Assembly (NCBI GenBank): GCA_035601615.1
Contig: DATNNX010000252.1
Location: forward strand, 1 to 48,495
Source: Xanthobacteraceae bacterium
GTDB lineage: Bacteria > Pseudomonadota > Alphaproteobacteria > Rhizobiales > Xanthobacteraceae
Length of the DNA: 48,495 nt
Direction: 5' to 3'
Part shown: piece by piece, positions 14,482-47,090 of the stretch
Numbering within the stretch: the stretch's first letter is position 1
Layout of the letters: every line of letters begins with the position of its first letter
Notes under the pieces: generated by a model
What the model was told of the DNA's origin: nothing
Databases searched by the model: none
Seen by the model: only the letters and a program-made list of their open reading frames with translations
Translations under genes and position numbers: made by a program

Positions 14482-14503
14482 TTTACTAGATTCGGGTGAA
14501 GCG

Positions 14504-14878: not shown

Positions 14879-14934
14879 GATCGGCTTCATGCTCGCGACC
14901 GGCCTCATGCCGAGGAGCATCGCGCCGCCGGGCG

Positions 14935-15037
14935 TAGGGTGGGCAAAGGCGCGCTCCGTACCATTACGCGTGGCCAAAATCGCACCGCGCCTTTGCCCGT
15001 GCGGCGACGGTACGCAAAGCGATTTTGCCCACCCTAC
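14935..15037. repeat. REP-like intergenic palindromic element, family A, copy 2
   Basis: GGGTGGGCAAAGGCGCG (14937-14953), GGCCAAAATCGC (14972-14983), CGCGCCTTTGCCCGT (14986-15000) and GCGATTTTGCCCACCCTAC (15019-15037) form interleaved inverted repeats. They share 14-17-nt blocks with 1213-1340. Confidence 0.65.
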
Positions 15038-15049
15038 TGTCGTCCACGC

Positions 15050-16048: not shown

Positions 16049-16088
16049 TTTGGCCGCGGATGAATCGTCTCATAAACGAGCGGCACGC

Positions 16089-25891: not shown

Positions 25892-26299
25892 CTAACGGCC
25901 GGTCCAGCTCTGCCACATGCCGAGTTCGAATACGGCGAGATTGGCAGCCTTGAGCAGCCCGCTCGCGGTGATCATGACTTCGGTGGCGGTGGCGCCGCCA
26001 CGCTGCGGAAGCGGCAGCACCTCATCGCCCGCCTCGACTTGTGCCGCGTAGGTCTTACACACGGCGGCCATGAGCGCCTGCAGCGCCTCGGTGCTCAGTG
26101 CATCGCGCCGGCCGCTGGCAAGCGCCCGCTCGAGCTCGGCGGCAAGCCGCTTCGCCTGTCCGGAGCCGGCACCGTTCGCGGTTTCACCCGCCGGTTTTGG
26201 TTCTCGCTCGACCGACTTGGCGCCTCTGGTGCGCTTTGCGGCCGGCCGCGCCGTCACTGCCGCGCGCCGCGCGGCCTTTGCCGCCCTAGGTGAGGACAT
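25892..26299 (-). CDS. Small conserved hypothetical protein (cassette partner, copy 2) with a basic Ala/Lys/Arg-rich N-terminal extension
   Basis: The C-terminal 80 aa are homologous to 14176-14481. ATG 26299 overlaps the Rieske gene 3' end by 14 nt. An alternative GTG lies at 26257. Confidence 0.6.
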   Translation of the reverse strand: MSSPRAAKAARRAAVTARPAAKRTRGAKSVEREPKPAGETANGAGSGQAKRLAAELERALASGRRDALSTEALQALMAAVCKTYAAQVEAGDEVLPLPQRGGATATEVMITASGLLKAANLAVFELGMWQSWTGR

Positions 26300-26651
26300 A
26301 AACTTCGTCGCCTTTCTCCAGCACCTTGTACTTGCGCAGCTTGAGCTTGCGATCCGACACGCATTCGCCGGTCTTCATGTCGTATTCGTAGCCGTGCCAC
26401 GGACAGACGAAATGCATTTCGTTCTCGGAGAAGTAGAGTCCCTGCGAGGTCTTGTCGGGCAACAGCCGCTCCTCGACTTTGGCGATGGTGAGGCCTTCGC
26501 AAGCGGGGCCGCCCTGGTGCAGGCAGAAATTGCTGTAGGCGTAGAATTGGCCCTCATGCCGGAAGATGCCGATCTCGTTGTCTCCGGCGAAGATGATCCG
26601 GCGGTCGCCGTCCTTGAACTCGGCGATCTTGCCGACATACTGCTCGGCCAT
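26286..26651 (-). CDS. Small Rieske [2Fe-2S] domain protein (121 aa), copy 2
   Basis: CLH and CPWHG ligand motifs. AAGGAGG RBS before ATG 26651 (MAEQYVGKIAEF). Confidence 0.88.
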   Translation of the reverse strand: MAEQYVGKIAEFKDGDRRIIFAGDNEIGIFRHEGQFYAYSNFCLHQGGPACEGLTIAKVEERLLPDKTSQGLYFSENEMHFVCPWHGYEYDMKTGECVSDRKLKLRKYKVLEKGDEVYVLT

Positions 26652-26739
26652 GCTGCGACGCCTCCTTGACGTTTCCTGCGATTGGTTCGCTTGACTTTGG
26701 GATACCCCTTGTGGCGGCGGAATCGGCATCCATCCGAAT

Positions 26740-26752
26740 TTGTATAATACAA
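26740..26752. promoter_or_regulatory. AT-rich inverted repeat TTGTAT-A-ATACAA (candidate operator / -10-like box)
   Basis: Perfect 6+6 inverted repeat with a 1-nt spacer. It is strikingly AT-rich for this genome and lies about 90 nt upstream of Rieske copy 2. Confidence 0.4.
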
Positions 26753-26831
26753 TTGCTGGAACAGAACCAGCGCCAAGGCGTGGTCCGGCATGTCGAACGG
26801 CATGCCTTTGCGAGGCCGAAGCGCCGCGCAA

Positions 26832-27758
26832 TCACGCCATCTTATTGGTCAGCGTTCCGATTTTCTCGATCCAGATTTTGACGACGTCGCCCGCCTTGAG
26901 GAATTCCCCGCGCGCCGCGCCGACCCCGGCGGGCGTGCCGGTGAGAATGATGTCGCCCGGATGGAGCGTCATCCCGCTCGATAATTGCGCGATCTGCTCG
27001 GCCAGATTGAAGATCATATTCTTGCTGTGGGAGTCCTGCTTGAGGACGTCGTTCACCCACAGCTTGAGGCTGAGCTTTTGCGGGTTGCCGATGTCGCGCG
27101 CCGGCACGATCCAAGGGCCCAGCGGGCAGGACCCGTCGAAGGTCTTGTGCTTGGTCCAATCGGACTTGAACGGGGAGGTGTCGCTGATGTTCGCCCGCCG
27201 CCCGCGGTCGCGCGCGGACAGGTCATTTGCCGCGGTATAGCCGGCAACGTAATCGAGCGCCTTGTCCTGGGGCACGTTTTTGGCCGCTCTGCCGATCACC
27301 GCCGCAAGCTCGACCTCCCAATCCATCTCGCTCGAGTACCCGGAAATCTTCACCGTCGCGCTGGGGTCGGCGAGCGTTCGCGCCGCCTTGATGAAATGCC
27401 ATGCCTTGAGGCCTTGGGTGTGCGGATCTGGCTCGGGCGGCCGGTTCATGCGCCGGGCCATTTCCGCGGCATGATCGGCATAGTTGGCGCCGGCGCAATA
27501 GATCGCCGATGGCCAGCGCACGGGTGCCAATAATTTCGCGCGTCCGAGCGGCAGCGGCTTGATGCGGCTCTTGCCCGCCGCCGCAGCCGCCTTGCGCAGG
27601 ACGCCTTGCGCCGTTCTCCAGTCCTCGAGGATGCCGAGCACCGTTGCATAGGCGGCTTTGCCGGTGAGTTTGGCGGCATCGAACACCTTGTCGTCGATCA
27701 CCAGCCCCGCGCGCGCGCCATCGGAGGCTTGGTAGGTCGCGAGCTTGTAGCCGTCCAT
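26832..27758 (-). CDS. Fumarylacetoacetate hydrolase (FAH) family protein
   Basis: The C-terminal FAH fold matches (DWEVELAAVIG, NDLSARD, GDIILTGTPAGVG). I take the start at ATG 27758 (MDGYKLATY), preceded by GGGGAGA. Confidence 0.88.
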   Translation of the reverse strand: MDGYKLATYQASDGARAGLVIDDKVFDAAKLTGKAAYATVLGILEDWRTAQGVLRKAAAAAGKSRIKPLPLGRAKLLAPVRWPSAIYCAGANYADHAAEMARRMNRPPEPDPHTQGLKAWHFIKAARTLADPSATVKISGYSSEMDWEVELAAVIGRAAKNVPQDKALDYVAGYTAANDLSARDRGRRANISDTSPFKSDWTKHKTFDGSCPLGPWIVPARDIGNPQKLSLKLWVNDVLKQDSHSKNMIFNLAEQIAQLSSGMTLHPGDIILTGTPAGVGAARGEFLKAGDVVKIWIEKIGTLTNKMA

Positions 27759-27789
27759 GTGTGTTTCTCCCCCTGTTCCCTCGGCCGCC

Positions 27790-27805
27790 GGCGAAAGCTT
27801 TCGCC
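27790..27805. promoter_or_regulatory. Perfect 16-bp palindrome GGCGAAAGCTTTCGCC in a divergent promoter region
   Basis: The sequence is self-complementary. It lies 32 nt upstream of the FAH start and about 210 nt upstream of the dioxygenase start. Confidence 0.35.
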
Positions 27806-28013
27806 CAATATATCGATCTTGTCGAGCGCGTCGAACTCCCTCCATCTCATCCGTGCATACATCGGCTACCTGGAGCGCGTGTTGCAGGGCTGGCGAGGAC
27901 GAGCCGAAGGGGTAGGATAAAGCGCGGCGAGAGCCGGCATAGCAGCCATCAGCGGCGATATCACGAGGCTTGGTCCGGCGTGCACGCTCGGAGGACAAAA
28001 AGGAGAAAACGTC

Positions 28014-28901
28014 ATGGTCAAAGCGAGACGCGTCGGTCACGCGACCTTCGAGACGCCCGATCTGGAAAAGGCCATCACTTATTACGGCGAGTTCATGGGA
28101 CTGATCGTCGCCGAGCGCGAAAAGGATCGCGCCTTTCTCGCCACCAAGATCGGGCAGCTGGTGATCGAGCTCAACAAGGCGGATCGGGCCCACTGCATCA
28201 AGCTGTCTTTCGAGGTCGCGGCCAATTCCGATTTCGGCGAATTGGCGCGCGAGCTATCCAAGGACGGCGTACGCAGCGAACTGCGCAACGATTCCGTTCC
28301 CGGCATGGGCCAAGTCCTGTCGTTCAAGGACGACAAAGGAACCATTATCGACCTGTTCAAAGACTGGAGCTATCTCGCCAAGCACGCGCAGGTCGCCGGC
28401 GTCGGGCCGCTCAAGCTCGGGCATGTCGCTTTCTTCACGCCCGACATCCAGCGCACGGTTGCGTTCTACGAGCGGGTCCTCGGCTTTCGCGTCTCCGATT
28501 GGATCGGGGATTTTTTCTGCTTCATGCGCTGCAACACGGATCATCACACCGTGAATTTCTTCACCGGGCCCGACGTGAAGCTGCATCACATCGCCTTCGA
28601 GCTCAAGGATTTCATGCATCTCCAGAACTCTTGCGACGTTATGGGCCAGAAACAGGTGCCGATCATCTGGGGTCCCTTGCGGCATGGGCCGGGGCACAAC
28701 GTCGCCACCTACCATCGCAATCCGGATGACCAGGTCGTTGAATTTTTCTCCGAGCTCGATCAAATGATCGACGAGGAGCTCGGCTATTTCGAGCCGCGGC
28801 CCTGGCACCGCGACACGCCGCAGCGGCCCAAGCGCTGGACGCCGGGCAAGACCAACGTGTGGGGCCCCTCGCCGGAGGAGGATTTCCACCGGACACAGTG
28901 A
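28014..28901 (+). CDS. Two-domain VOC-superfamily extradiol ring-cleavage dioxygenase
   Basis: Two glyoxalase-like modules. Candidate Fe ligands are LGHVAF, LHHIAF and VVEFFSE. AAAGGAGAA RBS. Confidence 0.85.
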   Translation: MVKARRVGHATFETPDLEKAITYYGEFMGLIVAEREKDRAFLATKIGQLVIELNKADRAHCIKLSFEVAANSDFGELARELSKDGVRSELRNDSVPGMGQVLSFKDDKGTIIDLFKDWSYLAKHAQVAGVGPLKLGHVAFFTPDIQRTVAFYERVLGFRVSDWIGDFFCFMRCNTDHHTVNFFTGPDVKLHHIAFELKDFMHLQNSCDVMGQKQVPIIWGPLRHGPGHNVATYHRNPDDQVVEFFSELDQMIDEELGYFEPRPWHRDTPQRPKRWTPGKTNVWGPSPEEDFHRTQ

Positions 28902-28938: not shown

Positions 28939-29715
28939 CTAAGGGCGCACCGCCGGCGTTTCGACCGGCATGCCGCGCGCGCGCCACATCAGGTAAAGCT
29001 CGAGATCGACAAGTTCGCTCGCTCCGTAGGGATAAGAGACCGCGCGCATGCCGAACAGACAGTTGCGCAGCCGCCGCTGCAGCGATCCGAGCGTTTGCCA
29101 CTCGAGGCGATAGAGCGGATATCCGGTCGGATGGCCCTGCGGGATCGCCGCGCCGGCAAGCTTTTGGCCCCAATTGTCGTCGTGGCACTGCGCGCAGGCG
29201 AGATTGAGCTGGCCTTGGCGCTCTATGAACATCGCGCGGCCGGCTTCCAGAAAAGGCCTTATCCGCGCGTCATCCGCGATGTCGATCGGCATGCCGCGCG
29301 ATTGCTCCCCGATATAGGCTGTGAGCGCCAGCAGCTCCTTGCTTTCGAAGGCAAGCGGGGTCGCGCGCTGCTGTTGAGTGCGGCACATATTGATCCGCTG
29401 TTCGAGATCGACCGGGCGGCCGCGCACCGCGTTGAATGCGGGATAGCGCGCCGCCACGCCTTTCATGCTCGTGCCCGCGTCGCCGTGGCAGTCCGCGCAT
29501 GATTTGCCGGCAGAACCCTCCTTACGCTGCCAGAGGGTCTCGCCGTCGAGCACCCACAACGTGGCGGGATTGGCGCTATCGTCGTCCTGCATCGCGCGTG
29601 TCTCTCGCGCCATGAAGTCGTAACCCGACTTGCGCTCCGAAAACGGAATGTCCGCCGCAGCCGCCGCAGCGCCCAAGGCGGCAAGCATGAAAACAGCAGC
29701 GGCCGCCCGCGTCAT
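28939..29715 (-). CDS. soxA: Dihaem cytochrome c SoxA
   Basis: Signal peptide, two haem motifs (CADCH and CAQCH) and the conserved GYPLYRLEWQTLGSLQRRLRNC region. ATGA overlap with soxZ. Confidence 0.9.
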   Translation of the reverse strand: MTRAAAAVFMLAALGAAAAAADIPFSERKSGYDFMARETRAMQDDDSANPATLWVLDGETLWQRKEGSAGKSCADCHGDAGTSMKGVAARYPAFNAVRGRPVDLEQRINMCRTQQQRATPLAFESKELLALTAYIGEQSRGMPIDIADDARIRPFLEAGRAMFIERQGQLNLACAQCHDDNWGQKLAGAAIPQGHPTGYPLYRLEWQTLGSLQRRLRNCLFGMRAVSYPYGASELVDLELYLMWRARGMPVETPAVRP

Positions 29716-30032
29716 TCGACCGTGATATTGACGGACTCGGCCGCCGTAAAGCCGTTGTCGCCGGTCCATTCGAAGCTCAGCGTGCCGCTTTCGCCGGCAA
29801 CGGTGAAAAAGGTCAGAAACGGATTGGCGGCGATAGCCGGGAACAGCTCGGCGCGGAAAATTTCCTCTCCATTATATTTGCAGGTGAATTCGGTGATGAT
29901 GTCGCGCGGCACCGGCTTCCCGGTACTGTCAGGGCGAAAGCCGGTCTCCATGACATGCGAGATCAGCGTCTTGATCTCGATCACTTCGCCGCGCTTGGCC
30001 TTCGCCGGCGCATTGATGAGGGCGCGCGCCAT
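29712..30032 (-). CDS. soxZ: Sulfur-carrier complex subunit SoxZ
   Basis: 106 aa. KRGEVIEIKTLISHVMETGFRPDSTGKPVPRDII matches my recollection of SoxZ closely. Confidence 0.88.
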   Translation of the reverse strand: MARALINAPAKAKRGEVIEIKTLISHVMETGFRPDSTGKPVPRDIITEFTCKYNGEEIFRAELFPAIAANPFLTFFTVAGESGTLSFEWTGDNGFTAAESVNITVE

Positions 30033-30034
30033 GC

Positions 30035-30523
30035 TCAGCTCCCTTCGAGACACGCGGCAAGGGTGACGACAACCTCGACCTCGTCCGACCAGAACGAGCC
30101 GTCGCTCATCTGCGCCACGGCAACGACCTTCTGGGTATCGGCGAGGCGAATGCGGGTCGAGAAGCTCGCCCGCCCGGCGCGTGGGCCGAAACCAGCGCCG
30201 ATGACGTTCGGCTGCGGATTTTTCTCGGTGAAGACGTGGATCGCCTTGACGTGGTCGTCTTGCGTCATCGGGCTTTCGCAGGACACCGTGAGCGGAACGG
30301 CATTGCCGTTCTCGATCAATGCGGGCACGTCGATCTTGACCTTGCCCTTCTTGAGCGGCGCCTCGCCGACGACGTTTCGGATCGCGGCGTGCATCGATGC
30401 CGGCGTGGCGGAGCTTTGCTCGACCGCAAGCGGCAACACGATGCCTGTGGCGCCGGCGAGCGCTGCCGTCTCGAGCAAGAAGCGGCGCCGTGTCCTCTGC
30501 AGCGTGCCGTCGTCGCGGGTCAT
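30035..30523 (-). CDS. soxY: SoxY-related carrier protein with variant C-terminal arm (...VTLAACLEGS instead of ...GGCGG)
   Basis: Tat signal QRTRRRFLLETAALAGA. The SoxY core matches (ENGNAVPLTVS, VKAIHVFTEKNP). I verified the C-terminus by hand translation of 30035-30076. GAGGAG RBS before ATG 30523. Confidence 0.85.
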   Translation of the reverse strand: MTRDDGTLQRTRRRFLLETAALAGATGIVLPLAVEQSSATPASMHAAIRNVVGEAPLKKGKVKIDVPALIENGNAVPLTVSCESPMTQDDHVKAIHVFTEKNPQPNVIGAGFGPRAGRASFSTRIRLADTQKVVAVAQMSDGSFWSDEVEVVVTLAACLEGS

Positions 30524-30528
30524 GGTGC

Positions 30529-31029
30529 TCACTCCTCGCGCAGCGTCGCGAGATAGGCGACGACATCCTCGATCTGTTCCGCGCTCAGCACCGGCTTGCC
30601 TTGAAACGCCGGGGCGACGCGCGTGAGACCATCGACTCGATAATAGGGCGGCATGATCGTGTTCGGGTTGAGCCGGCTCGCATCCACGATCCGCAGCCGC
30701 AGCTGACCTTCAGACCAGCGCGCTCCGCTTCCTTTGAGGTCTGGTGCGAGTGTGCCCTGGAACTTCTCCTTCGGGAAGGGCCCGTTGTGGCAGAGCAGGC
30801 AGAGCCCCTCCTGCCGGTTAACGACGATACTGCGCCCGCGTTCCACATCGCCCTTTGCGCCGGTCAACGAATGCGGGATTGCGTCTCCAACGACGGTATA
30901 AGGACGCAGTTGCTCTTCGGCCCGCGCGCCATCGCATGCTGCGATCATCGCGGCGAGCGCGATCGCCGCGATGCGCGCGCCGCAACGCTCAGCCAAAAAC
31001 TTCGGTGGTGATCGTTTTGAACCAGGCAT
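30529..31029 (-). CDS. soxX: Monohaem cytochrome c SoxX
   Basis: Haem motif CLLCH and the conserved MPPYYR and [13 protein letters not shown] regions. The ATG 31029 start overlaps soxF by 41 nt. A TTG at 30996 is an alternative. Confidence 0.85.
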
Positions 31030-32254
31030 TCGCGAAAGTGGCTTCTAGCGCGCGCGTGGCGTTCGGCGCATCGAGCGGGCTCACGCCGGCCGTCCCTTCG
31101 ATGTCCTTGATCTGACCATCCGCCGGCCGGTACACGCCTTCGATCGAGATGCCGTAGTCGGGCGCCACCAAGCTGTAGCAGGTGTTGATGAGCCTCGGCT
31201 CATCCGGCGTGCCGCCGGCAAGAAGCTTCGCCACCGCGGCGGCGCAGACCTTGGCCTGGGCATTGGCCGAGAACGCGGATTTCGGCATCGCGCCTGCGAT
31301 CGAGGCGTCGCCGACGACGTGGATATTGGGCTGCAATTTGGATTCGAACGTGACAGCGTCGATCGGGCACCAACCGGTGCGATCGGCGACGCCGACGATC
31401 TCGGCGATGCGGCCCGCCTTCTGCGGCGGAATGACGTTTGCGACATCGGCCTTGTGGCGGTCGAAATCCGTGATCAGCGTCATCGCACCAACGTCGACCG
31501 AAGTAACCTTGCCGCCCTTCGATAACGATACCCATTCGAGATTGGGATAGAGCGCTTTCCACGCGTTCTCGAACAGGCGCTGCTTGGAGAAGGCGTCCTT
31601 GGCATCGAGGATGATCAGCTTCGATTTCGGCTTCTTGGTTTTGAGGTAGTAGGCGATCAGGCTTGCCCGCTCGTAAGGACCTGGCGGGCAGCGGAAGGGA
31701 TTGGCGGGCGCCGAGATCACGACGGTGCCGCCGTCCTCCATCGCCTCGAGCTGCCGGCGCAGTAGCAGCGTCTGCTCGCCGGCTTTCCAGGCATGCGGCA
31801 TGCGTTCGGCGGCCGTCTCGGTATAGCCGGGCAGGGCGTCCCAGCGGATGTCGATGCCAGGCGAGAGCACTAGGCGGTCATAGGCAAGCTCCGCGCCATT
31901 GCCAAGCGTCACCGTCCGTCGCTGGGGATCGATGGCGGTCGCGGGCGAAAACTGGACGGCCACCTGATCGGTCGCGAACCGATCGTAGCCGAATTGTTGT
32001 GCGGCGAGCTCACGCAACCCGGCGATCACCAAGTTGCTGAACGGGCAGGCGATGAACGTGCGGTTCGCCTCGACCAGGGTCACGCTGATGCGCGGATCGA
32101 TGCGTTTGATGAAACGGGCGCAGGTCGCGCCCCCAAATCCGCCGCCCACCACGACGACGCGAGCGCCTGCGCCTTGCGCAATGGCCGGGAGCGGCAACAA
32201 GGCCGCGCCGGCAGTGACGGTTTTGAGGAATTCACGCCGGTTTGTGCGCCTCAT
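30989..32254 (-). CDS. fccB: Flavocytochrome c sulfide dehydrogenase flavoprotein subunit (FccB/SoxF)
   Basis: Tat signal [14 protein letters not shown] fingerprint [14 protein letters not shown] and the conserved [13 protein letters not shown] region. GGAGG RBS. Confidence 0.9.
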
Positions 32255-32270
32255 GATCGGCCTCCATTCC

Positions 32271-32576
32271 TCAATCTTTTTGCGCGCCGTACCAGGCTGC
32301 GATTGCTTTGACCTCGTCTTCGGAAAATCCTTTGGCGATTCGCTCCATCACGGTCGATGGAAGCTGTCCCGTCTTGAACGCCTGCATGGCCGCGACGATG
32401 TCCGCGGGATTGCGGCCGATCAGTCCTGGCACGGCGGTGTCCGCCGCGGGCGTACTCGAATGACAGCCGGAACAGGAGAGCGCGCCGGGCGGTGCTTCGG
32501 TCAATCCGGCCGCCGAAACATGACCGGCAAAGATAAATCCTAAGGCGGCAACACTCCCGATGCGTGTGGCGTTCAT
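32271..32576 (-). CDS. Small monohaem c-type cytochrome (FccA/SoxE-like single domain)
   Basis: Signal peptide [23 protein letters not shown], haem motif CSGCH and MQAFKTG...MERIAKG. It ends 16 nt upstream of fccB. Confidence 0.85.
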
Positions 32577-32620: not shown

Positions 32621-34774
32621 TTATGCGCTGCTGAGATCGTGGTTCTTGAGCGGCAGGGACCGGATGCGCTTGCCGGTCGCCGCGAAGAGGGCGTTGCACA
32701 AGGCGGGGGCGAGCGGCGGCACGGCGGTTTCGCCGATCCCGCCCCAGCCCTCGCCCGGGACGATGACGGTTTCGATCCGCGGCATGTCCGCCAGACGCAG
32801 CATCGGATAGTCGTGGAAATTCGCCTGCTCGACCCGTCCGTCCCTGATGGTGATCTCGCCGTAAAGCGCCGCCGTCAGCGCGAACACGACTGCGCTCTCG
32901 GTCTGCATTTCGATGGTGAGCGGGTTGACCACGTGCCCGGCGTCAATCGCAGAGACGACGCGGTGCACGCGCACTTTGCCGTCGCTGGCGACAGAGGCCT
33001 CGACCACCTGCGCGCAGATGCTGTTTTGCGAGTTATGGAACGCGATGCCGCGGAATGCGCCCCCCGGCGGCGACGTGCCCCATCCGGCACGGGTCGCAAC
33101 GGCGTTGAGCACCGCAAGCTCTCTCGGCTTTCCCGCCAACAGCTTGCGCCTGAACAGATAGGGATCGGCACCGGCCGCAAAGGCCATCTCGTCGACGAAG
33201 CTTTCCTTGAAGAACGCGTTCTGCGAATGGTTGACGCTGCGCCAGACCCCGACAGGAACGTGGGTGTTGCGCATCGCGAAATCGAGGCGATAGTTCGGCA
33301 CGCCATAAGGCATGTCTTCCAAAAGGCCTTGGAGAAAATTCCTGTCGACCCCGAACTGCATCACGCGCGGAGATACCGCCGCAATGATGGACTGGCCGGC
33401 GATGCGGATTGACCAGGCGATCGGCGTGCCGGCGGCGTCGAGCCCGGCGACGAGCCTTGCCATTGCCACCGGACGATAAAAGTCGTGGCGGATGTCCTCT
33501 TCGCGCGTCCAGACGAGCTTCACCGGCTGGCCGACCTCTTTCGCGATCAGCACCGCTTGGCGCACGAAGTCCTGAAAGATCCCCCGTCGGCCGAAGCCCC
33601 CGCCGAGCATCATTTTGTGAATCACGACTTTGCTCGGCGGCACGCCGGCGGCATCGGCCGCGATCGCGAGCGCGGTCTCGCCGTCCTGGGTCGGCGCCCA
33701 GACCTCGACCACATCCGCTGTCACCTGCGCGGTGCAGTTCTGCGGCTCCATCGTGGCGTGAGCGAGAAAGGGCACCTCGTAATCCGCTTCGACCCGCTTG
33801 ATCGTATGCGCGAGCGCGCGCTCGACATCGCCGTCGTTGCGGCCGACGCGCGCATCCGTGGCGGTAAGCCCGGCTTGCAGGTGCGCGCGAATGCTGCCGC
33901 TGGAGACGGTGGAGTTCTCACCAAAATCCCAGCTCACCGGCAGCGCCTGCGCCGCCCGTTGCGCCTGCCACCAGCTGTCTGCGATCACGGCGACAGCATC
34001 CGCGAGCTTCACCACGCGGCGGACGCCTTTCATGCCCGACATCTTGCTCTCGTCGACCCATCTGAGCGAACCCTTGAACACCGGGCATTGGATGATCGCC
34101 GCGTAGAGCATGTTCGGCAGCTGAACGTCGATGGCGTAGATCGGCTTGCCCGCAACCTTGTCGGGAACATCGAGACGCCTTTGCCGCGTGCCGATCAGCT
34201 TCCAGTCCTTCGGGTCCTTCAAGGCGACCTGCGTGGGGGGAGCGATATCGGCCGCCGCCGCTGCGATCCGGCCGAACGTGATCCTGCGGCCGCTCGGGCG
34301 GTGGGTGATCACGCCTTGCGCGGCGGTGCATTCGGCATCGGGTACGTTCCAGCGCGCGGCGGCGGCCGCGATCAGCAACGCGCGCGCGGTAGCGCCGGCG
34401 CGGCGCAAATCATTCTGGGAGGCGCTGACGGAGCGGCTCGCGCCCGTCGACATGTTGCCCCAGACGCGGTCCCGCTTGCGATTCTCGTGCGGTGGCGCAA
34501 ACTCGGCCTTCACCTTGCTCCAGTCGCATTCGAGCTCTTCCGCCACCAGCATCGGCAAGGCGGTAAAGCTGCCTTGACCCATCTCCGATTTGGCGACGCG
34601 GATGATCACGGTCTCGTCGGGCTCGATCACGATCCAGGCGGTGATCTCGCGCGCGGAGGTTGCGGCGTGCGTGGCGCGCGGGCCGAACGGAATGTCGAAG
34701 CCGAGTACCAGCGAGCCGCCGACCGCGGCCACGCTGGCGAGAAAGGAGCGGCGGTCGAGGCGAACGCGGCTCAC
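32621..34774 (-). CDS. Tat-exported molybdopterin-binding large subunit, IorB/aldehyde-oxidoreductase-like (pair 1)
   Basis: Inferred GTG start at 34774, forming a GTGA overlap with the small-subunit stop. Tat motif [16 protein letters not shown]. The family region [40 protein letters not shown] is present. Confidence 0.85.
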
Positions 34775-35244
34775 GGCAGTCTCGCTCCGCTCACGCGCCG
34801 GCCCGCGACGGCGTGGATCGCGGCGCGGATGCGCTGGTAGGTGCCGCAGCGGCAGATATTCGTGATGGCGGCGTCGATCTCCGCGTCGCTCGGATGAGGC
34901 TTCTCCTCGAGCAACGCGGCCACCGCCATCATCATTCCGCTCTGGCAATAGCCGCATTGCGGAACCTCGAGATCGAGCCACGCCTGCTGCACGGGATGGA
35001 GCGCGCCGTTTCGTCCCAGGCCTTCGATGGTGGTGATGTGCTTGTCAGCGGCCGTGCTCACCGGAACCGAACAAGAACGGATCGGCGCGCGGTCGATGTG
35101 GACCGTGCAGGCCCCGCATTGCGCGATCCCGCAGCCGTATTTGGTGCCGAGGAGCCCGAGCGTGTCCCGCAGCACCCAGAGCAGCGGCGTCTCCGGATCG
35201 ACATCGACGTCGTGGGCCCGTCCATTCACTGTAAGACGCGCCAT
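34771..35244 (-). CDS. [2Fe-2S]-binding small subunit, IorA/CoxS-like (pair 1)
   Basis: The two cluster motifs are [12 protein letters not shown] and [10 protein letters not shown]...CRCGTY. GGGAGAG RBS before ATG 35244. Confidence 0.9.
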
Positions 35245-35391
35245 GGGTCTCTCCCGACCGAGCTTCAAAACGGCGGTTCGATCGACCTGAGATTAGTTCA
35301 AAAAAATCGCGCGCGCAAAATTTGCCGACGCGAACGTAAGCGTCAACGCCTCGGGCGCGGGCCGCGCGTCTGAATATCTTTCCACGATGAA

Positions 35392-35416
35392 AGCGGCGGC
35401 CGCATCGGCCGCCGCT
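35392..35416 (-). terminator. GC-rich hairpin between the two IorAB-like pairs (possible terminator or processing site)
   Basis: AGCGGCGGCCG-cat-CGGCCGCCGCT, an 11-bp perfect stem starting 10 nt after the pair-2 large-subunit stop. The downstream U-tract is poor. Confidence 0.45.
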
Positions 35417-35425
35417 TCGTTCTCG

Positions 35426-37606
35426 TTACGCGAACGAGATGTTGTGGCTCTTGAGCGGCATCGAGCGGATGCGCTGGCCCGTGGCGGCAAAGTACGCGTT
35501 GAGCACGGCCGGCGCGGCGACGCAGATCGTCGGCTCGCCGACGCCGCCCCAGAAGCCGCCCGACGGTATGAGGACCGTTTCCACCTTCGGCATCTCGGCA
35601 ATCCGCATGATGTCGTAGCTGTCGAAGTTCTGCTGCTCGATGCGTCCATCCTTGACGGTGCAGACGCCGTTGAATAGCGCGGTCAGCCCATACGCCGCGG
35701 AGCCCGCAACCTGCCGTTCGATTTGGGCCGGATTGACGGCGTATCCCGGGTCGGTGGCGGCAACGATGCGGTGGATCTTGATCTTGCTGCCGCTCACCAC
35801 CGAGATTTCCGCCGCCCCGGCCACATAGCTGCCATAGGCCATCTGCTGGGCAAGCCCGCGATAGACGCCTTGCGGGGCAGGCTGTCCCCAGCCGATCTTC
35901 TCGGCCACGGCATTGAGCACCGCGAGGTGCTTGGGATATTTCGCCATCAGCTTGCGGCGAAACTCGAGCGGATCCTCTCCGGCCGCGTGCGCGAGCTCAT
36001 CCATGAAGCACTCGAGATAGATCGCGTTTTGATTGTTGTTGACGCCGCGCCAGAAGCCCGGCGTGACGTGCGGGTTTCGCATGGCATGATCGATCAGCAG
36101 ATTGGGAACGTCGTAACCGAACGCGCCTTCGGAGCCGCCGGGATTGAGCCCCTGGAAGGTCGCGGGGTCGCGACCGTTCTGCAGCCGCGCAGGAGCGAGG
36201 GTGGCCAGGATCGACTGGCCGGAAATCCGCATGTGCAAGCCGGTGAGATTGCCGTTGGCATCGAGCGCACCGGTGAGCTTGCACTGCGTGATCGGATGGT
36301 ACGTGTCCTGCGTCATATCCTCTTCGCGCGACCAGAGAAGCTTGATCGGGGTGCCCGGCACCTGCTTTGCGATCAGCACCGCTTGGGTGACGTAATCGGT
36401 CCGTCCGCGCCGGCCGAAACCGCCGCCGAGCAGGAACTTGTGCACGTCGCACTTCGCGATCGGCAGCCCCGACGCCTCGGAGGTCGCGGCCAACGCCGCT
36501 TCCGCATTCTGCGAGCTCGTCCACACCTCACATTTGTCGGGCGTGTAGACCGCGGTTGCGTTCATCGGCTCCATGCACGCATGCGCCTGGTACGGATAGC
36601 CGTAGACTGCCTCGACCTTCTTCGCCGCGCCGGCGATCGCTGCTTTCACGTCGCCCTTTTGGTTGCCGACGAAAGCTTCCTGCGCATCGAGTCCGGCCTT
36701 GAGCAGCTCGCCGATCGAGGCGCTGCTGACCTTGGCGTTCTCGCCCTCGTCCCACACGATCGGTAGCGCTTCGAGCGCGGTCTTGGCCCGCCACCAGCTG
36801 TCGCCGACGACGGCGACGGCGGTCTGACCGACCTGCACGACGTGCTTCACGCCCTTGTTGCCGGCGATCTTGGCGGCGTCGAAGCTTTTCACTTTGCCGC
36901 CGTGAACGGGGCACGCCTTCACCGCGGCATACAACATGCCGGGCAGCCTCACGTCGATCGCGTAAGGCGCCTTGCCGGTCAGCTTGTCCGGCGTATCGAG
37001 CCGCTTGGCCGGCTTGCCGGCGATCTTCCAGTCCTTGGGATCCTTGAGCTTGACCTCGGCGGGCGGCTCGAGCTTTGCCGCGGCCTCGGCTACCTTGCCA
37101 TAGGTGGTGGTGCGCCCGGACGGCTTGTGCGTGATGACGCTATTCTCGGCCGTGCACTCGGCGGTCGGCACGTTCCACGTATTGGCGGCGGCCTGGATCA
37201 GCATCATGCGCGCGGCAGCGCCGCCCTTGCGCACGTATTCGTTCGACTCGCGGATGCCGCGGCTGCCGGTAGTCGAGAAATCGCCCCACACGCGCTTGCG
37301 GGCGACGTTCTGGCCCGGCGTCGGCTGATCGGCTGTGACCTTCGACCAGTCGCATTCGAGCTCCTCGGCGACGAGCTGCGCGAGCCCCGTCAGCGTGCCT
37401 TGGCCCATCTCGGCCCGGGCGATGCGAATGGCCACGGTGTCGTCGGGGCGGATCACCACCCAGGCATTGATCTCGGGCGTCGCGTCCTGCGCGCGCGCGA
37501 CCGGCGGGCCAGCGAAGGGAAGCTCGAAGCCGAGCGTCAAGCCGCCGCCCAAGGCGGCTGCGCTCACGACGAAACTGCGGCGATCGATGTTCGCTACGTG
37601 ATTCAT
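35426..37606 (-). CDS. Tat-exported molybdopterin-binding large subunit, IorB-like (pair 2)
   Basis: ATG 37606 (MNHVANIDRRSFVVSAAALGG, Tat motif) is preceded by GGGAGG. Collinear similarity to pair 1 ([40 protein letters not shown]). Confidence 0.87.
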   Translation of the reverse strand: MNHVANIDRRSFVVSAAALGGGLTLGFELPFAGPPVARAQDATPEINAWVVIRPDDTVAIRIARAEMGQGTLTGLAQLVAEELECDWSKVTADQPTPGQNVARKRVWGDFSTTGSRGIRESNEYVRKGGAAARMMLIQAAANTWNVPTAECTAENSVITHKPSGRTTTYGKVAEAAAKLEPPAEVKLKDPKDWKIAGKPAKRLDTPDKLTGKAPYAIDVRLPGMLYAAVKACPVHGGKVKSFDAAKIAGNKGVKHVVQVGQTAVAVVGDSWWRAKTALEALPIVWDEGENAKVSSASIGELLKAGLDAQEAFVGNQKGDVKAAIAGAAKKVEAVYGYPYQAHACMEPMNATAVYTPDKCEVWTSSQNAEAALAATSEASGLPIAKCDVHKFLLGGGFGRRGRTDYVTQAVLIAKQVPGTPIKLLWSREEDMTQDTYHPITQCKLTGALDANGNLTGLHMRISGQSILATLAPARLQNGRDPATFQGLNPGGSEGAFGYDVPNLLIDHAMRNPHVTPGFWRGVNNNQNAIYLECFMDELAHAAGEDPLEFRRKLMAKYPKHLAVLNAVAEKIGWGQPAPQGVYRGLAQQMAYGSYVAGAAEISVVSGSKIKIHRIVAATDPGYAVNPAQIERQVAGSAAYGLTALFNGVCTVKDGRIEQQNFDSYDIMRIAEMPKVETVLIPSGGFWGGVGEPTICVAAPAVLNAYFAATGQRIRSMPLKSHNISFA

Positions 37607-37620
37607 GGCTGCCTCCCCGC

Positions 37621-38073
37621 TCACGCGCTCGCGGCAGCGGCGTGGATCGCCGCGCGCACCTGCTGGTAGGTGCCGCAGCGGCAGATATTGGTGATGTTGC
37701 TGTCGATGTCGGCGTCGGTCGGTTTCGGCTTGTCCTTGAGCAGCGCCGCCACCGCCATGATCATGCCGCACTGGCAATAACCGCATTGCGGCACGTCGTG
37801 ATCGAGCCAGGCCTGCTGCACCTTGTGCAGCACGCCGTTCTGCGCCAATCCCTCGATGGTAGTGATCTGACGGCCCTCGACTGCGCTCAACGGCACCGAG
37901 CACGAGCGCATCGCAATGCCGTCGACATGCACGCTGCAGGCGCCGCACTGGGCGATGCCGCAGCCATATTTGGTGCCGGTCAGTCCAAGCGTGTCGCGCA
38001 ACACCCACAGCAGCGGGGTCTCGGGGTCGACATCGACCTGGTGAGTCCTTCCATTGACGGTGAGTTCAGCCAT
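37621..38073 (-). CDS. [2Fe-2S]-binding small subunit, IorA-like (pair 2)
   Basis: [48 protein letters not shown] is near-identical in its N-terminal third to pair 1. GGAGG RBS. Confidence 0.9.
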
Positions 38074-38372
38074 TTTGCAAACCTCCATGAATCGCCGGCA
38101 TGAAGAGGTAATGATTCGTCCGGCGACCCCTCGGCCCCGCCGCGCATCTTGGGGGAAACCTGTCCGTAGGAACACCGCGCATGGTAGCAAAGTTCCATGG
38201 TGACATGGACCCCTTACCACGAGCGCAGCGGGGCCGCCGCGTAAAATCTGAATAAACTGCGAGCGGTCGCCAATCGCCGCCGATCGAGAGATGCGCGGCG
38301 CCAGAAACCGTTTGAGCCGTCTGCGAACGTCCCCTACCTTTTCGGGGCGGCGGTGGGACGGCAGATTGGATC

Positions 38373-39146
38373 ATGGAGTTTGCTCGGCAGACGATCGAGA
38401 TTAATGGCTGCAAGCTCAGCCTGGCGCGTGGCGGCAAGGGCGCGCCGTTGATCTACCTGCACGGCACCGACGGGCTTGCGGACTGGCCGGGCCTTCTCGA
38501 TACATTGGCAGAGCGCTTCGACGTCATTGCCCCCGATCATCCCGGCTTCGGCGGCTCGGAGGCGCCGGCCTGGATCGATGACATTTCCGATCTCGCCTAT
38601 TGCTATCTCGATGCCATCGAGGTTCTTGGCCTCTCCGGCGTTCACATCGTCGGGCAATCGCTGGGCGGTTGGATTGCGCTTGAAATGGCGGTGCGCTCGA
38701 CGCAGCGCCTGCGCAGCTTGACGCTGGTCTCGGCCGCCGGCATCCACGTCAAGGGCGTAGGCAAGGCTGATATTTTCATCATCGATCCGGAGGAGCAGGC
38801 GCGCCTCGCCTATGCCGACCCCAAGCTCGGCGAGGAAGCGGCGGCTCGCGCCGCCACGGACAAATATCAGGATCTCGCAATCCTCAACCGCATCGCTAGC
38901 GCGCGCTTCGGGTGGCAGCCCCGCTTCTTCAACCCGCGGCTCGAGCGCTGGCTGCACCGGGTGAATGTCCCCACGCACATCGTCTGGGGTGACGACGATC
39001 GCATCATTCCGCCGGCTTACGCCGAGGCGTTCCACCGCCTGATCCCGGGCTCCACGCTGACCATGATTCCCAATGCCGGGCACCTGCCGCACATCGAGCG
39101 CGCCGCCGCCGTCACCGAGGCGATCCGAGGCTTCCTGCGGAACTGA
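38373..39146 (+). CDS. Alpha/beta-fold hydrolase (meta-cleavage-product hydrolase-like)
   Basis: Oxyanion HGT, nucleophile elbow GQSLGG and a C-terminal catalytic His region (NAGHLPHIE). Confidence 0.85.
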   Translation: MEFARQTIEINGCKLSLARGGKGAPLIYLHGTDGLADWPGLLDTLAERFDVIAPDHPGFGGSEAPAWIDDISDLAYCYLDAIEVLGLSGVHIVGQSLGGWIALEMAVRSTQRLRSLTLVSAAGIHVKGVGKADIFIIDPEEQARLAYADPKLGEEAAARAATDKYQDLAILNRIASARFGWQPRFFNPRLERWLHRVNVPTHIVWGDDDRIIPPAYAEAFHRLIPGSTLTMIPNAGHLPHIERAAAVTEAIRGFLRN

Positions 39147-39201
39147 TGTGCCCGCCGTGAAGGTAGTGCGCTTTGCGTGAACTCACGTCCAGGAGACAAC
39201 A

Positions 39202-40041
39202 ATGACAACGAAGAAATACGAGACCGTCCTGATCGAGAAGCAGGATGGCATCACTTGGCTGATCATGAACCGGCCGGACAAGCGCAACGCCATGAGCCCG
39301 CAGCTCCACCTCGAGATGGACGACGCGCTGGCCGAGCTCGCGGTCGATCCGCAGACCCAGGTCCTCGTGCTCACCGGTGCGGGCGATGCCTTCTGCGCGG
39401 GGCAAGACATCAAGCTTTATTTCCGCGCCAACGACGATGCGCCGGCGGCGAGGGCCAAAGCCCGCTACGCCTCCAATCAGTGGCGCTGGCACAGGCTCTC
39501 GAACTTTCCGCAGCCGACCATCGCCATGGTCAACGGCTACTGCTTCGGCGGCGGCTTCACGCAAGTCTGTGCCTGCGATTTCGCGCTGGCAGCCGACGAA
39601 GCGCCGTTCGGCCTTTCAGAGGTCAACTGGGGCATTCTGCCCGGCGGCATCGTGTCATGGAACGTCGCGCAGACATTGAACTTCCGCGACGGCATGTATT
39701 ACGCGCTCACCGGCGACACGTTCGACGGTAAGAAGGCCAAGGAGATCGGATTCGTGAACTTCTCCTATCCCAAGGAGAAGCTGAAAGAGGAGACGATCAA
39801 GCTCGCTAAAAAACTGATGGAGAAGAGCCCGGCCGTGCTGCGCTACACTAAAGAGGCGCTGCGCGCCGTGCGGTTCATGAACGAGCCGCAGGCCGCCGAC
39901 TACCTCAACGCCAAGAGCGATGCCTTGCGTTTCGTCGATAAGGAAGACAGCCGCACGCAAGGCATGAAGCAGTTTCTCGATGAGAAGACCTATCGCCCGG
40001 GTTTTGGCGCCTTCAAACGCCAGAAGGCGGCGCGTCCGTAG
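39202..40041 (+). CDS. Crotonase-superfamily enoyl-CoA hydratase/lyase, hydroxycinnamoyl-CoA hydratase-lyase (HCHL)-like
   Basis: Collinear by-eye similarity to my recollection of Pseudomonas HCHL (NRPDKRNAMSP, VLVLTGAGDAFCAGQDIK, PTIAMVNGYCFGGGF, FGLSEVNWGILPGG, GMKQFLDEKTYRPG). AGGAGA RBS. Confidence 0.72.
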   Translation: MTTKKYETVLIEKQDGITWLIMNRPDKRNAMSPQLHLEMDDALAELAVDPQTQVLVLTGAGDAFCAGQDIKLYFRANDDAPAARAKARYASNQWRWHRLSNFPQPTIAMVNGYCFGGGFTQVCACDFALAADEAPFGLSEVNWGILPGGIVSWNVAQTLNFRDGMYYALTGDTFDGKKAKEIGFVNFSYPKEKLKEETIKLAKKLMEKSPAVLRYTKEALRAVRFMNEPQAADYLNAKSDALRFVDKEDSRTQGMKQFLDEKTYRPGFGAFKRQKAARP

Positions 40042-40098
40042 TAGACGATCCGGCTGATCGGCTTGGGTATCGCCGGCGCACGGCACGGCGTACGCCTA

Positions 40099-41859
40099 CT
40101 ATCGCGGCGCATTCTTGGCCTTCTCGGCCCTCAACTGCGCACGGCGCGCCTGCGTGGCCGCCACATCGATCGCCCATGATCGCCCGGCCGGCCGCAGGAT
40201 CACGCCATAGTCGCGCTCCGCCGCCTCTTTGGAAACGGCGCCCTCGCACACGTCGGCCAGCACGCGTTCGGCCTCGCGCGCGAGCGGATCGCCATATCCG
40301 CCGCCGCCCGGGGTATCGAGTCGAAAGGTGTCTTGCGCCCGCAAGGGATAATCGGCGTAGCGGGTCGGCAAGCGCTTCGCCGCCGCGCGCTCCGGGTTGA
40401 TCCAGATATCGCCGGCACGCCCGCTCTCGCCGCCGACGCAGCCGTTCGGGGGGATTGCATGCTTCATCGAGCGGATGGAGAAGCGCGCATCGGCGAGGTT
40501 GAGATATTCGCGGCGGATGCCGAGCCCGCCGCGGAACTCGCCCGCGCCGCCGGAATCGGTGATCAGCTCGAAGCGGGTGATGCGAGTGGGAAATTCGCTC
40601 TCAATGATCTCCACGGGCGCGATCTTGGCATTGCTTTGATTGACCGTGATGCCGGAGGCCCCATCCTTGCCCACCCGCGCGCCGGCGCCGCCGGCGATGA
40701 TCTCGTATTGCACATAGCCCTTGCCGGTATAGGTGTTGCGCCCGCCTAGGATGATGGAGCGGCTGCCGCTGCCGTCGGCGCGCGCCTTGCCCGGCACGAC
40801 GTGGCTCACGGCGGCGAAGATGGCGTCCACAAGCGCATGGATGGTGGGATTGTAGGTGTTGACCGGGGCGGGAAACCGCGGGTTTAGCACGCTGCCCTCG
40901 CGTGCCGTCATGGTGAAGCCGCGAAGAAGCCCGCTCGATACATACATGTTCGGATCGATCAGCGAGATCAGCGCGTAGGCGCAGGCTGCTTGCACCAAGG
41001 GCGGGCGGATATTCGCGGGGCCCTTGGTTTGGTCCGCCGAGCCGCTGAAATCGAAATGAAGCGCGTCTCCTCTCTTTTCGATGACCACGTGGATGCGCAC
41101 CGGCCGCTCGAGCTCGACGCCGTCGTCGTCGACGAAACGCTCCGCCTCGAAACGGCCGTCCTTCCATTCGGCGATTGCCTGCTTGACCTTTACTTCCGAC
41201 ATTTCGAGTAGGCGATCGAAGCAGGCGAGGATTTCCCGTTTGCCGAATTTGCCGACGAGCTCTCCGAGCCGCCTCTCGCCCAGCCGGTCGGCGCCGAGTT
41301 GGCCGCGGATGTCGCCCAGCACGAGTTCCGGGGTGCGGCTGTTGGCGCCGATCAGCCGCTCGATGTCGCCGTGGCGGCGATAGGCCGTCTCGTAGCGCAC
41401 GGCGGGCAGGTGCAGCCCCTCGTTGAAGATTTCCCGCGCTTGGCCCGAGCAGCTTCCCGGTACCGGGCCGCCGATGTCGCTCTTGTGCGCGATCGAGCCG
41501 CAGAAGCCGAACAGCTCGCCGTCCGCGAAGAACGGCGTAAGGACGGCAATGTCGGGCGCGTGCGGACTGCCGCCCTGGTAGGGATGATTGATCAGGAAGG
41601 CGTCCCCTTGCGCCATGCCGCCGCCGAATGCGTCGATGACGGCGGCGGTAGAGGCCGGGAAGGCGCCGATGTGTAGCGGCAACACCACGTGCTGAGCCAC
41701 CACCTCGCCGCGCGCGTTCATCAGCGCACAGGACGCATCCTGCGACTCCCGCACGATGGTAGAAAAGCCGGTGCGGAACAGCGAGTTCTGCATCTCCTGC
41801 ACGATGCCGGAGAGACTGGCCTTCACCACTTCGAGATCGACGGGATCGATGGCGTGCAC
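40099..41859 (-). CDS. hyuB: Hydantoinase B/oxoprolinase family protein (HyuB-like)
   Basis: DPVDLEVVKASLSGIVQEMQNSLFRTGFSTIVRESQDASCAL and FLINHPYQGGSPHAPDI. I infer a GTG start at 41859 with GGAGAA upstream, 5 nt after the hyuA stop. Confidence 0.85.
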   Translation of the reverse strand: MHAIDPVDLEVVKASLSGIVQEMQNSLFRTGFSTIVRESQDASCALMNARGEVVAQHVVLPLHIGAFPASTAAVIDAFGGGMAQGDAFLINHPYQGGSPHAPDIAVLTPFFADGELFGFCGSIAHKSDIGGPVPGSCSGQAREIFNEGLHLPAVRYETAYRRHGDIERLIGANSRTPELVLGDIRGQLGADRLGERRLGELVGKFGKREILACFDRLLEMSEVKVKQAIAEWKDGRFEAERFVDDDGVELERPVRIHVVIEKRGDALHFDFSGSADQTKGPANIRPPLVQAACAYALISLIDPNMYVSSGLLRGFTMTAREGSVLNPRFPAPVNTYNPTIHALVDAIFAAVSHVVPGKARADGSGSRSIILGGRNTYTGKGYVQYEIIAGGAGARVGKDGASGITVNQSNAKIAPVEIIESEFPTRITRFELITDSGGAGEFRGGLGIRREYLNLADARFSIRSMKHAIPPNGCVGGESGRAGDIWINPERAAAKRLPTRYADYPLRAQDTFRLDTPGGGGYGDPLAREAERVLADVCEGAVSKEAAERDYGVILRPAGRSWAIDVAATQARRAQLRAEKAKNAPR

Positions 41860-41864
41860 GGCGA

Positions 41865-43928: not shown

Positions 43929-44109
43929 GCGATCGTTCCACCCGAAGCGAGCAGTGTCCGTATAAGGCCATGGCTCGTGGCAAGGGACAATCGCCGGCGC
44001 AAAAGAGCCGAGCCACGACTGCGCGCCTGCGGATATGACGCAAGAGGGCGAGCCGAGAATGCGGTTGTAATGGCGCTGCGATCCATATGACATAGCGGCA
44101 GCCGCAGGA

Positions 44110-45204: not shown

Positions 45205-45267
45205 TGTCCGCCGCACCGGCCCTTGGGATAAAGTGAACGCTGCTATCGCAGGAACAACAAGCGCCGA

Positions 45268-46155: not shown

Positions 46156-46252
46156 ATTGTTGGATTTCAGCCACAACAATCGGAGGAGCGCGATGGCCAA
46201 GGGAAAAGCGCAAGAATGCTTGCGAGGCGGCGAGACCCCGATCGGATAGGCC

Positions 46253-47086: not shown

Positions 47087-47090
47087 CGGG

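Follow-up and report, generated by a model that had tools for sequence, protein, structure and literature searches.

What does a set of Sox genes do when neither SoxB nor SoxCD is encoded with it? The question is raised by a 48,495-nucleotide stretch of DNA from a Xanthobacteraceae bacterium (GenBank assembly GCA_035601615.1, contig DATNNX010000252.1), referred to below as the window, in which six open reading frames (ORFs) on the minus strand at positions 28939-32576 code for an FccA-like cytochrome c, FccB, SoxX, a variant SoxY (SoxY'), SoxZ and SoxA. An earlier note, made from the sequence alone, had described six chained genes here, and the ORF coordinates and family profiles bear this out. 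We find that the Sox-like set recurs in related loci together with a molybdoenzyme of the xanthine-dehydrogenase family (IorAB). The array is very probably no part of the ordinary thiosulfate-to-sulfate pathway. We lean, if only slightly, towards a Sox-derived cassette whose downstream chemistry differs and which works without SoxB as a single functional unit, with IorAB integral to it in place of SoxB and SoxCD.

A Sox-like gene set and its variant carrier

Pfam and NCBIfam scans of 44 ORFs, which take in all the long ORFs of the window with a high GC content at third codon positions (GC3), gave no SoxB and no SoxCD, in agreement with what the earlier note had stated for this locus. Nor was an Oxidored_molyb-type (sulfite-oxidase-family) protein found in the window; the only molybdoenzymes in it belong to the xanthine-dehydrogenase family. 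Related loci were retrieved via SoxY' (80 from genomes and 80 from metagenomes), with their neighbors tabulated by strand, and the IorB side was sampled with four relatives (L161 to L164). A crude search for the triple motif of SoxB-type metallophosphoesterases, which in the related loci reached 8-10 kb from the cassette, had no hit in 1.87 Mb of sequence (the window plus 164 related loci). Clustering of conserved genes in the first 80 loci agrees with this search and gave no SoxB-like or SoxCD-like conserved neighbor. Recurrence of the Sox-like set without a soxB nearby, which had been raised in the earlier note, is thereby upheld.

The carrier itself is also unusual. The C-terminal arm of SoxY' reads ...VVVTLAAC-LEGS, as against VTIGGC-GG in canonical SoxY. 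In an alignment with Paracoccus SoxY (2OX5, VTIGGC), its cysteine falls exactly on the carrier cysteine, and the residues that flank it are bulkier than in canonical SoxY. The protein reaches 204.5 bits with TIGR04487, the "SoxY-related AACIE arm protein" (cut-off, 172), and with its AACLE arm it belongs to that family; with the true-SoxY model TIGR04488 it reaches only 114.9 bits (cut-off, 125), and it does not have the GGCGG arm of canonical Sox carriers. In the 80 related genome loci, the arm has the consensus VT[LI][AS]AC[LTVF][ED][EGD] plus up to two residues. SoxY' was also searched as a single sequence against 1.84 billion 50%-identity representatives, and the best 150 matches were examined. 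About 95 of them have non-GGC arms, mostly [AGS]AC with an acidic residue at +2, 14 have a GGC arm, and 35 are truncated or have no cysteine in the C-terminal tail. By these numbers, AAC-arm carriers are a large and old family and no local oddity. Matches to TIGR04557, the quinoprotein-dehydrogenase-associated SoxYZ-like carrier, were weak (63 bits for SoxY' and 41 bits for SoxZ; cut-off, 140).

Two related loci have carrier arrangements of their own. In L012 (10001-10810), SoxY' and SoxZ are apparently in frame with no stop between them, which is either a fused SoxY'Z, reminiscent of the fused SoxYZ-like carriers of TIGR04557, or a sequencing error. In L035 (9995-13120), from a betaproteobacterial metagenome-assembled genome (MAG), one cluster holds two carrier pairs in the order IorA-IorB-SoxY'(AACLEELA)-SoxZ-SoxX-SoxY''(SACLDADNV)-SoxZ-SoxA.

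Association of the Sox-like set with IorAB

Which genes, then, go with the carrier? SoxX was encoded in 125/125 SoxY' loci with room for it, and SoxZ and SoxA in 100/101. Where at least 4.8 kb of sequence lay upstream (n = 80), IorB was found on the same strand in all 80 loci, IorA in 78 and FccB in 74; the IorB counts rest on IorB2 of the window as the query. A deeper branch was sampled with a 45%-identical representative (arm, AACIDGG) and four relatives on long contigs (L165 to L168), and with these four a xanthine-dehydrogenase-family molybdoenzyme stands upstream on the same strand in 84/84 loci with enough upstream sequence. The earlier note had rightly placed such molybdoenzymes upstream of the set, and a convergent dioxygenase downstream of it, but had set the former aside as irrelevant; they are instead its most constant companions. 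Since IorAB is probably part of the system, the limits of 28939-32576 drawn there were too narrow, and the array extends to about position 38073.

Among the hosts are many Bradyrhizobium species, Xanthobacteraceae MAGs, betaproteobacterial MAGs, Enhydrobacter aerosaccus and Telmatospirillum siberiense. Loci of the betaproteobacteria have no FccB, and in them IorB directly abuts SoxX. Conservation of the cassette spans Alpha- and Betaproteobacteria and reaches down to a carrier identity of 43-46% in the AACIDGG-arm subfamily, which includes Oceanibaculum pacificum and a Rhodomicrobiaceae MAG. All four loci of this subfamily have the order IorA-IorB-SoxX-SoxY'-SoxZ-SoxA-FccB, that is, FccB is relocated and the IorB/SoxX junction is retained. 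The iorB stop and the soxX start overlap as GTGA in three of the four (L166 to L168), and L020 has an iorB/soxX overlap of 4 nt by ORF coordinates. Read from these gene orders, the constant core is IorAB, SoxX, SoxY', SoxZ and SoxA, with FccB usual but movable and FccA occasional, and the SoxY' of the core has the arm pattern [AS]-A-C-x-[ED] in place of GGCGG. Because the genes outside the stretch from IorA to SoxA or FccB vary between lineages, the block behaves as a unit; no flanking regulators or hydrolases were common to the other lineages.

IorB2 shares 64-76% identity with Sox-adjacent IorB proteins from other lineages; in most of these lineages, the IorB encoded right beside the Sox genes is its ortholog. 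In a neighbor-joining tree of 45 IorB sequences, which is suggestive only because its sampling was biased towards Sox-linked loci, the Sox-adjacent copies of all lineages, the deepest branches included, fall into an IorB2-type clade, and the non-adjacent copies are nested among sequences of the window's own clade. IorB1 is a sister type and the Sox-adjacent copy in the window's own clade, in which the iorAB pair has been duplicated.

Some features differ between lineages. Tandem amplification of iorAB in the window's clade was seen in loci L004, L005, L162 and L164: two pairs are present in the window (32621-38073), three in several relatives and one in other lineages. Upstream of the AACIDGG-arm cassettes in L165 to L168 there is an AraC-type regulator or an OmpR/HisKA two-component pair, plus a divergent gene for a small cytochrome c, and in two of these loci a gene of the GFA family (glutathione-dependent formaldehyde-activating enzyme family) directly follows fccB.

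The ten-gene array and its surroundings

Four more genes, iorA2, iorB2, iorA1 and iorB1, lie upstream of the Sox-like block on the same strand, which makes a same-strand array of ten genes running from 38073 to 28939 (Table 1). All ten reading frames are intact and have a strong GC3 codon bias, and the heme, cysteine, flavin adenine dinucleotide (FAD) and molybdenum motifs are retained across the array proteins. A GGAGG ribosome-binding site lies 8 nt upstream of iorA2. The GTG start of iorB1 overlaps the iorA1 stop (GTGA), a gap of 44 nt separates iorB1 from the cytochrome c gene, and one of 16 nt separates the latter from fccB. fccB and soxX overlap by 41 nt if soxX starts at ATG 31029 and by 8 nt if it starts at TTG 30996. 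From the soxX stop to the soxY' ATG there are 5 nt and from soxY' to soxZ 2 nt, and soxZ and soxA share an ATGA at 29712-29715; this overlap and the tight soxX-soxY' junction had both been recorded in the earlier note and are found as described.

Table 1. Features of the array in the window (aa, amino acids; nt, nucleotides; Tat, twin-arginine translocation)
Feature	Position	Strand	Details
Presumed promoter region	38074-38372		299-nt intergenic region between the array and a divergent alpha/beta-hydrolase gene
iorA2, two-[2Fe-2S] small subunit	37621-38073	minus	150 aa; Fer2 and Fer2_2 type Pfam/NCBIfam matches
iorB2, molybdopterin large subunit, xanthine-dehydrogenase family	35426-37606	minus	726 aa; Tat signal (DRRSFVV)
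Spacer hairpin	35391-35417		Perfect 12-bp GC-rich hairpin, AAGCGGCGGCCG...CGGCCGCCGCTT, in the 181-nt spacer between iorB2 and iorA1
iorA1, second [2Fe-2S] small subunit	34771-35244	minus	157 aa; Fer2 and Fer2_2 domains
iorB1, paralogous molybdopterin large subunit	32621-34774	minus	717 aa; Tat signal (DRRSFLA)
FccA/SoxE-like monoheme cytochrome c	32271-32576	minus	101 aa; CSGCH motif; Sec signal
FccB/SoxF flavoprotein, flavocytochrome c sulfide dehydrogenase	30989-32254	minus	421 aa; Tat signal
SoxX monoheme cytochrome	30529-31029	minus	166 aa from ATG 31029; alternative TTG start 30996
SoxY' carrier	30035-30523	minus	Tat signal (RRRF); carrier Cys158 codon 30050-30052
SoxZ	29712-30032	minus	106 aa; no signal peptide; Pfam SoxZ
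SoxA diheme cytochrome	28939-29715	minus	258 aa; Sec signal

The remaining Sox proteins are much closer to their canonical counterparts. SoxX (TIGR04485, 81.9 bits; cut-off, 61), SoxZ (TIGR04490, 91 bits; cut-off, 76) and SoxA (TIGR04484, 240.8 bits; cut-off, 110) all lie above the NCBIfam equivalog cut-offs. SoxX matches the structure of Paracoccus SoxX (2C1D_B) with 94 bits, and its CLLCH (heme) and TIMPPYY (methionine-ligand) motifs are invariant across homologs. SoxA matches the structure of Rhodovulum SoxA (1H31_A) with 170 bits, and both CXXCH motifs as well as both cysteine heme ligands (INMCRT and RLRNC) align, so that SoxXA has the cysteine-ligated active-site heme of canonical Sox. 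A lipoprotein nature of SoxX, considered in view of an IAAC lipobox, was rejected because the cysteine is not kept in homologs. FccB has the domains FCSD_central (PF21706, 162.6 bits) and FCSD-flav_bind (PF09242, 88 bits) of flavocytochrome c sulfide dehydrogenase (FCSD), aligns end to end with the solved flavoprotein 5N1T_A (483 bits), matches 1FCD_A with 435 bits, and shares the cysteine motifs of these flavoproteins, including TCYSLV. The c-type cytochrome subunit of FCSD is encoded next to it: the top solved-structure match of the small cytochrome is 5N1T_B, the monoheme cytochrome subunit of FCSD, and in the neighbor tables this cytochrome was never detected without FccB. On both counts it was rejected as the primary electron acceptor of IorAB.

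IorAB combines a two-[2Fe-2S] small subunit with a molybdopterin large subunit that has the catalytic glutamate. IorB2 contains MoCoBD_1 and MoCoBD_2 domains, and its top solved match is 8GY3_C (271 bits), the large subunit of a membrane-bound aldehyde dehydrogenase, with the GEP catalytic-glutamate motif aligned; IorB1 is 51.5% identical to IorB2. Judged by these motifs, the molybdenum hydroxylase looks catalytically competent. The enzyme of 8GY3, the closest solved relative of IorB, has a separate cytochrome c subunit. No gene for a dedicated multiheme cytochrome c subunit of IorAB was found in the array, in which the only cytochromes are FccA, SoxX and SoxA, and soxX stands at the position where the gene of an IorAB cytochrome subunit would be expected.

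The hairpin between iorB2 and iorA1 lacks a subsequent T-run on the coding strand and is therefore not a canonical terminator; it might serve mRNA processing or stability, or might have been left behind when iorA1B1 was inserted. Terminator-like sites between 28700 and 38500 were no more frequent than in shuffled sequences. A scan of the same interval for sigma-70 consensus promoters gave none, and the promoter at 38074-38372 is therefore only presumed.

Downstream of soxA, the next gene is the convergent one of the VOC/extradiol-dioxygenase family (28014-28901, plus strand). Genes for a VOC extradiol dioxygenase, an FAA-hydrolase and a Rieske ferredoxin follow soxA in the window (26286-28901) and in loci L001-L016, L090 and L149. 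They were rejected as parts of the system, since their conservation does not extend beyond the window's own clade, and are probably an unrelated aromatic-catabolism unit. Upstream of the array, a block at 38373-48482 is syntenic in the close relatives L161 and L162 and comprises genes for an alpha/beta hydrolase, an enoyl-CoA hydratase, hydantoinases B and A, Ldh_2, a 3-hydroxyisobutyrate-dehydrogenase-like protein, Amidohydro_2 and an EutA-like protein. At 4209-6722 on the plus strand, in a position unrelated to the Sox array, lies the gene for one more large subunit of the xanthine-dehydrogenase family, the third in the window; it is of the classical type and has an a/b hammerhead domain. 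Otherwise, the window encodes hydantoinases A and B, amidohydrolases, thiamine pyrophosphate (TPP) enzymes, ABC transporters, a GMC oxidoreductase and similar catabolic genes.

Known relatives, possible working and rival explanations

The canonical Sox systems of Paracoccus pantotrophus and Rhodovulum sulfidophilum share with the array the SoxXA heme motifs with a cysteine-ligated active site, a SoxY/SoxZ carrier pair with aligned cysteine, the SoxF/FccB flavoprotein and a periplasmic, Tat-exported carrier. They differ from it in the carrier arm (VTIGGC-GG instead of VTLAAC-LEGS) and in having SoxB, with SoxCD as an optional part, neither of which is found in the window or near the related loci; moreover, the canonical molybdoenzyme is SoxC of the sulfite-oxidase family, whereas window-type loci have one of the xanthine-dehydrogenase family. 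Closer relatives are on record, one of them the second sox locus (soxY2) of Bradyrhizobium japonicum/diazoefficiens. Bradyrhizobium diazoefficiens reportedly has a complete soxTRSVWXYZABCD locus and a second soxY homolog; soxY1 is essential for thiosulfate oxidation and soxY2 is not, and a soxY1 mutant cannot oxidize thiosulfate despite an intact soxY2 (PMC5748708). Since this species has two soxY homologs and its locus L069 has no soxB or soxCD nearby, we take L069 to be the soxY2 locus. In Telmatospirillum siberiense, soxEFXYZA are the only sox genes reported (PMC5786683); thus, the cassette exists without SoxB at least there. Gene set, gene order and AAC-type arm of L069 and of the Telmatospirillum locus (L060) are the same as in the window, although the Bradyrhizobium locus lacks the small cytochrome and both loci have one iorAB pair, as against two or three in the window's clade. 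The iorAB genes are not mentioned in these two papers.

Other known proteins resemble parts of the array. TIGR04487, whose curated cut-off SoxY' exceeds with its A-A-C-x-E arm, names the protein only and apparently states neither a function nor partner enzymes. The three-subunit aldehyde dehydrogenase of Gluconobacter (8GY3, IorAB type) likewise has a two-[2Fe-2S] small subunit and a molybdopterin large subunit with a Tat signal, and no FAD subunit; unlike it, the array has no multiheme cytochrome c gene and has soxX, soxY', soxZ and soxA instead. TIGR04557 is also a SoxYZ-derived carrier that stands alongside a periplasmic dehydrogenase rather than SoxB, but there SoxY and SoxZ are fused, the partner is a pyrroloquinoline quinone (PQQ) enzyme and SoxXA is missing. 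A 2026 survey reported roughly a thousand or more paralogs each of soxA, soxX, soxY and soxZ outside sox clusters and left them unexplained (PMC13500833), and a large SoxY study of 2024 dropped all sequences without the GGC motif (PMC11237559). We found no literature on the AACIE arm or linking iorAB with sox genes. The variant arm (as a curated NCBIfam family) and the soxB-less cluster (in Bradyrhizobium and Telmatospirillum) are therefore already on record; what seems to be new is that throughout a large protein family the Sox-like set has the molybdoenzyme IorAB as a fixed companion.

How might such a cassette work? By its sequence, the system is fully periplasmic, with a canonical SoxXA active site and a carrier cysteine in the canonical position on a different arm, and FccAB is a bona fide sulfide dehydrogenase. 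FccAB would oxidize sulfide, and SoxXA would load Cys158 of SoxY' through an oxidative reaction with a sulfur nucleophile, which may be sulfide or persulfide and possibly thiosulfate or a thiol. Because the arm differs and SoxB and SoxCD are absent, the adduct would have a different fate: it would be handled by a molybdenum enzyme and not by SoxB/SoxCD. IorAB, which is constant and at times translationally coupled, may set the fate of the adduct by acting on the carrier-bound group, or at minimum may pass electrons to SoxX as its outlet; electrons would exit via c-type hemes. Within this single-unit reading, it is possible but doubtful that IorAB acts directly on what the arm cysteine of SoxY' carries. 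If it does, common soil heterotrophs would have a periplasmic pathway for oxidizing sulfide-derived or organosulfur substrates that needs neither SoxB nor SoxCD, with the carrier as a periplasmic stand-in for coenzyme A. The earlier proposal of a Sox-derived system with a different chemistry or substrate is supported in part, by a carrier that is not a true SoxY, by the lack of SoxB nearby and by the soxY2 of Bradyrhizobium, which thiosulfate oxidation does not require, and its chemical part is carried forward here as a proposal.

Several points weigh against a single unit. The functional link between IorAB and Sox is one that we infer. The chief objection is chemical: xanthine-dehydrogenase-family enzymes hydroxylate activated C-H bonds (in aldehydes or N-heterocycles) or oxidize CO, and we know of none that oxidizes sulfane sulfur or uses a protein-bound substrate. 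Furthermore, the association of Sox with IorAB is one-way. L163 and L164 have IorB homologs 78% identical to IorB2 and no Sox genes; L164 has a triple iorAB array in this state, and in L162 the full Sox set comes after three iorAB pairs. L161 (IorB2 88% identical, same upstream flank) may also lack Sox genes, on a scaffold that is gapped and messy; at 12904-16329 an AraC-like gene follows iorB1 where fccA-fccB-sox would be expected, which is either a misassembly or a true absence of the Sox module. SoxY' was the entry point for most loci, and Bradyrhizobium supplies many of them, so that the locus counts are not independent events. The equivalence of window-type loci with Bradyrhizobium soxY2 is an apparent one, deduced from gene content. 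Finally, the ten genes may be two transcripts, because iorA2B2 is set apart by the 181-nt spacer with its strong hairpin.

If IorAB were an ordinary periplasmic aldehyde or heterocycle dehydrogenase that merely uses SoxX/SoxA or FccA as a shared electron outlet, the carrier would never meet it, and FccAB, SoxXA and SoxY'Z would independently oxidize sulfide, or render it harmless, with sulfane sulfur as the product, either free or bound to the carrier. The aldehyde dehydrogenase nature of the closest solved IorB relative and the intact catalytic glutamate motif fit this view, as do the lack of a dedicated cytochrome gene with soxX in the expected place, the close IorB homologs that occur elsewhere without Sox genes, and the tandem iorAB paralogs ahead of one Sox set in the window's clade, which would be several dehydrogenases with one outlet. 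It would leave unexplained, however, why SoxY'Z and SoxA are constant beside IorAB (84/84 loci) and why FccB is dispensable and the IorB-SoxX junction is not, and the carrier adduct would be without a turnover enzyme; we regard a mere shared outlet as unlikely. Some of the same facts could be read as a service to the enzyme, in which a persulfide on SoxY' installs or restores the Mo=S ligand that exported IorAB needs for catalysis. CO dehydrogenase belongs to the same enzyme family, and accessory proteins encoded in its operon sulfurate it once it is assembled. The one-way association, with the Sox-like set always beside IorAB and IorAB often without it, is the pattern of an accessory factor and its client, several iorAB pairs precede a single Sox set, and the ORF scans of the window showed no XdhC/PaoD-type chaperone gene. 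Yet Tat substrates are normally exported with their cofactor complete, seven genes including two electron-yielding sulfur oxidases are a heavy outfit for the delivery of trace sulfur, and periplasmic sulfuration of molybdenum has no known precedent. Such a service is improbable.

Ordinary thiosulfate oxidation that draws on a SoxB, and perhaps SoxCD, from another part of the genome is just as improbable. It would account for SoxX, SoxZ and SoxA passing the cut-offs for the true proteins, for the canonical SoxA active site and for the complete soxTRSVWXYZABCD locus of Bradyrhizobium genomes that also hold the cassette (PMC5748708). A simply split canonical system is opposed by a carrier that falls below the true-SoxY cut-off, with bulkier residues around the arm cysteine, by the dispensability of soxY2 and the defect of the B. 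diazoefficiens soxY1 mutant with soxY2 intact (PMC5748708), by T. siberiense, which has the cassette but no soxB (PMC5786683), and by the absence of a SoxB motif near the cassette in all 164 related loci (0/164). Since no phenotype in thiosulfate was reported for the Bradyrhizobium soxY2 mutant (PMC5748708), one might also think of a decaying, functionless remnant of a duplicated sox operon. The ten intact reading frames with their codon bias, the retained heme, cysteine, FAD and molybdenum motifs and the conservation in Alpha- and Betaproteobacteria down to 43-46% carrier identity leave hardly any room for this.

The single SoxB-independent unit with IorAB thus keeps our slight preference. 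Among the unexplained sox paralogs, AAC-arm carriers make up one large class, which is abundant in soil metagenomes and in Bradyrhizobium and is joined in a fixed cassette to a molybdenum hydroxylase and, in most cases, to a sulfide dehydrogenase. The genes of this cassette should not be counted as thiosulfate-oxidation potential in metagenome surveys. The cassette could show whether an enzyme of the xanthine-dehydrogenase family joins in carrier-based sulfur chemistry, and B. diazoefficiens, as a genetically tractable host, could reveal the role of a Sox carrier that works without SoxB.

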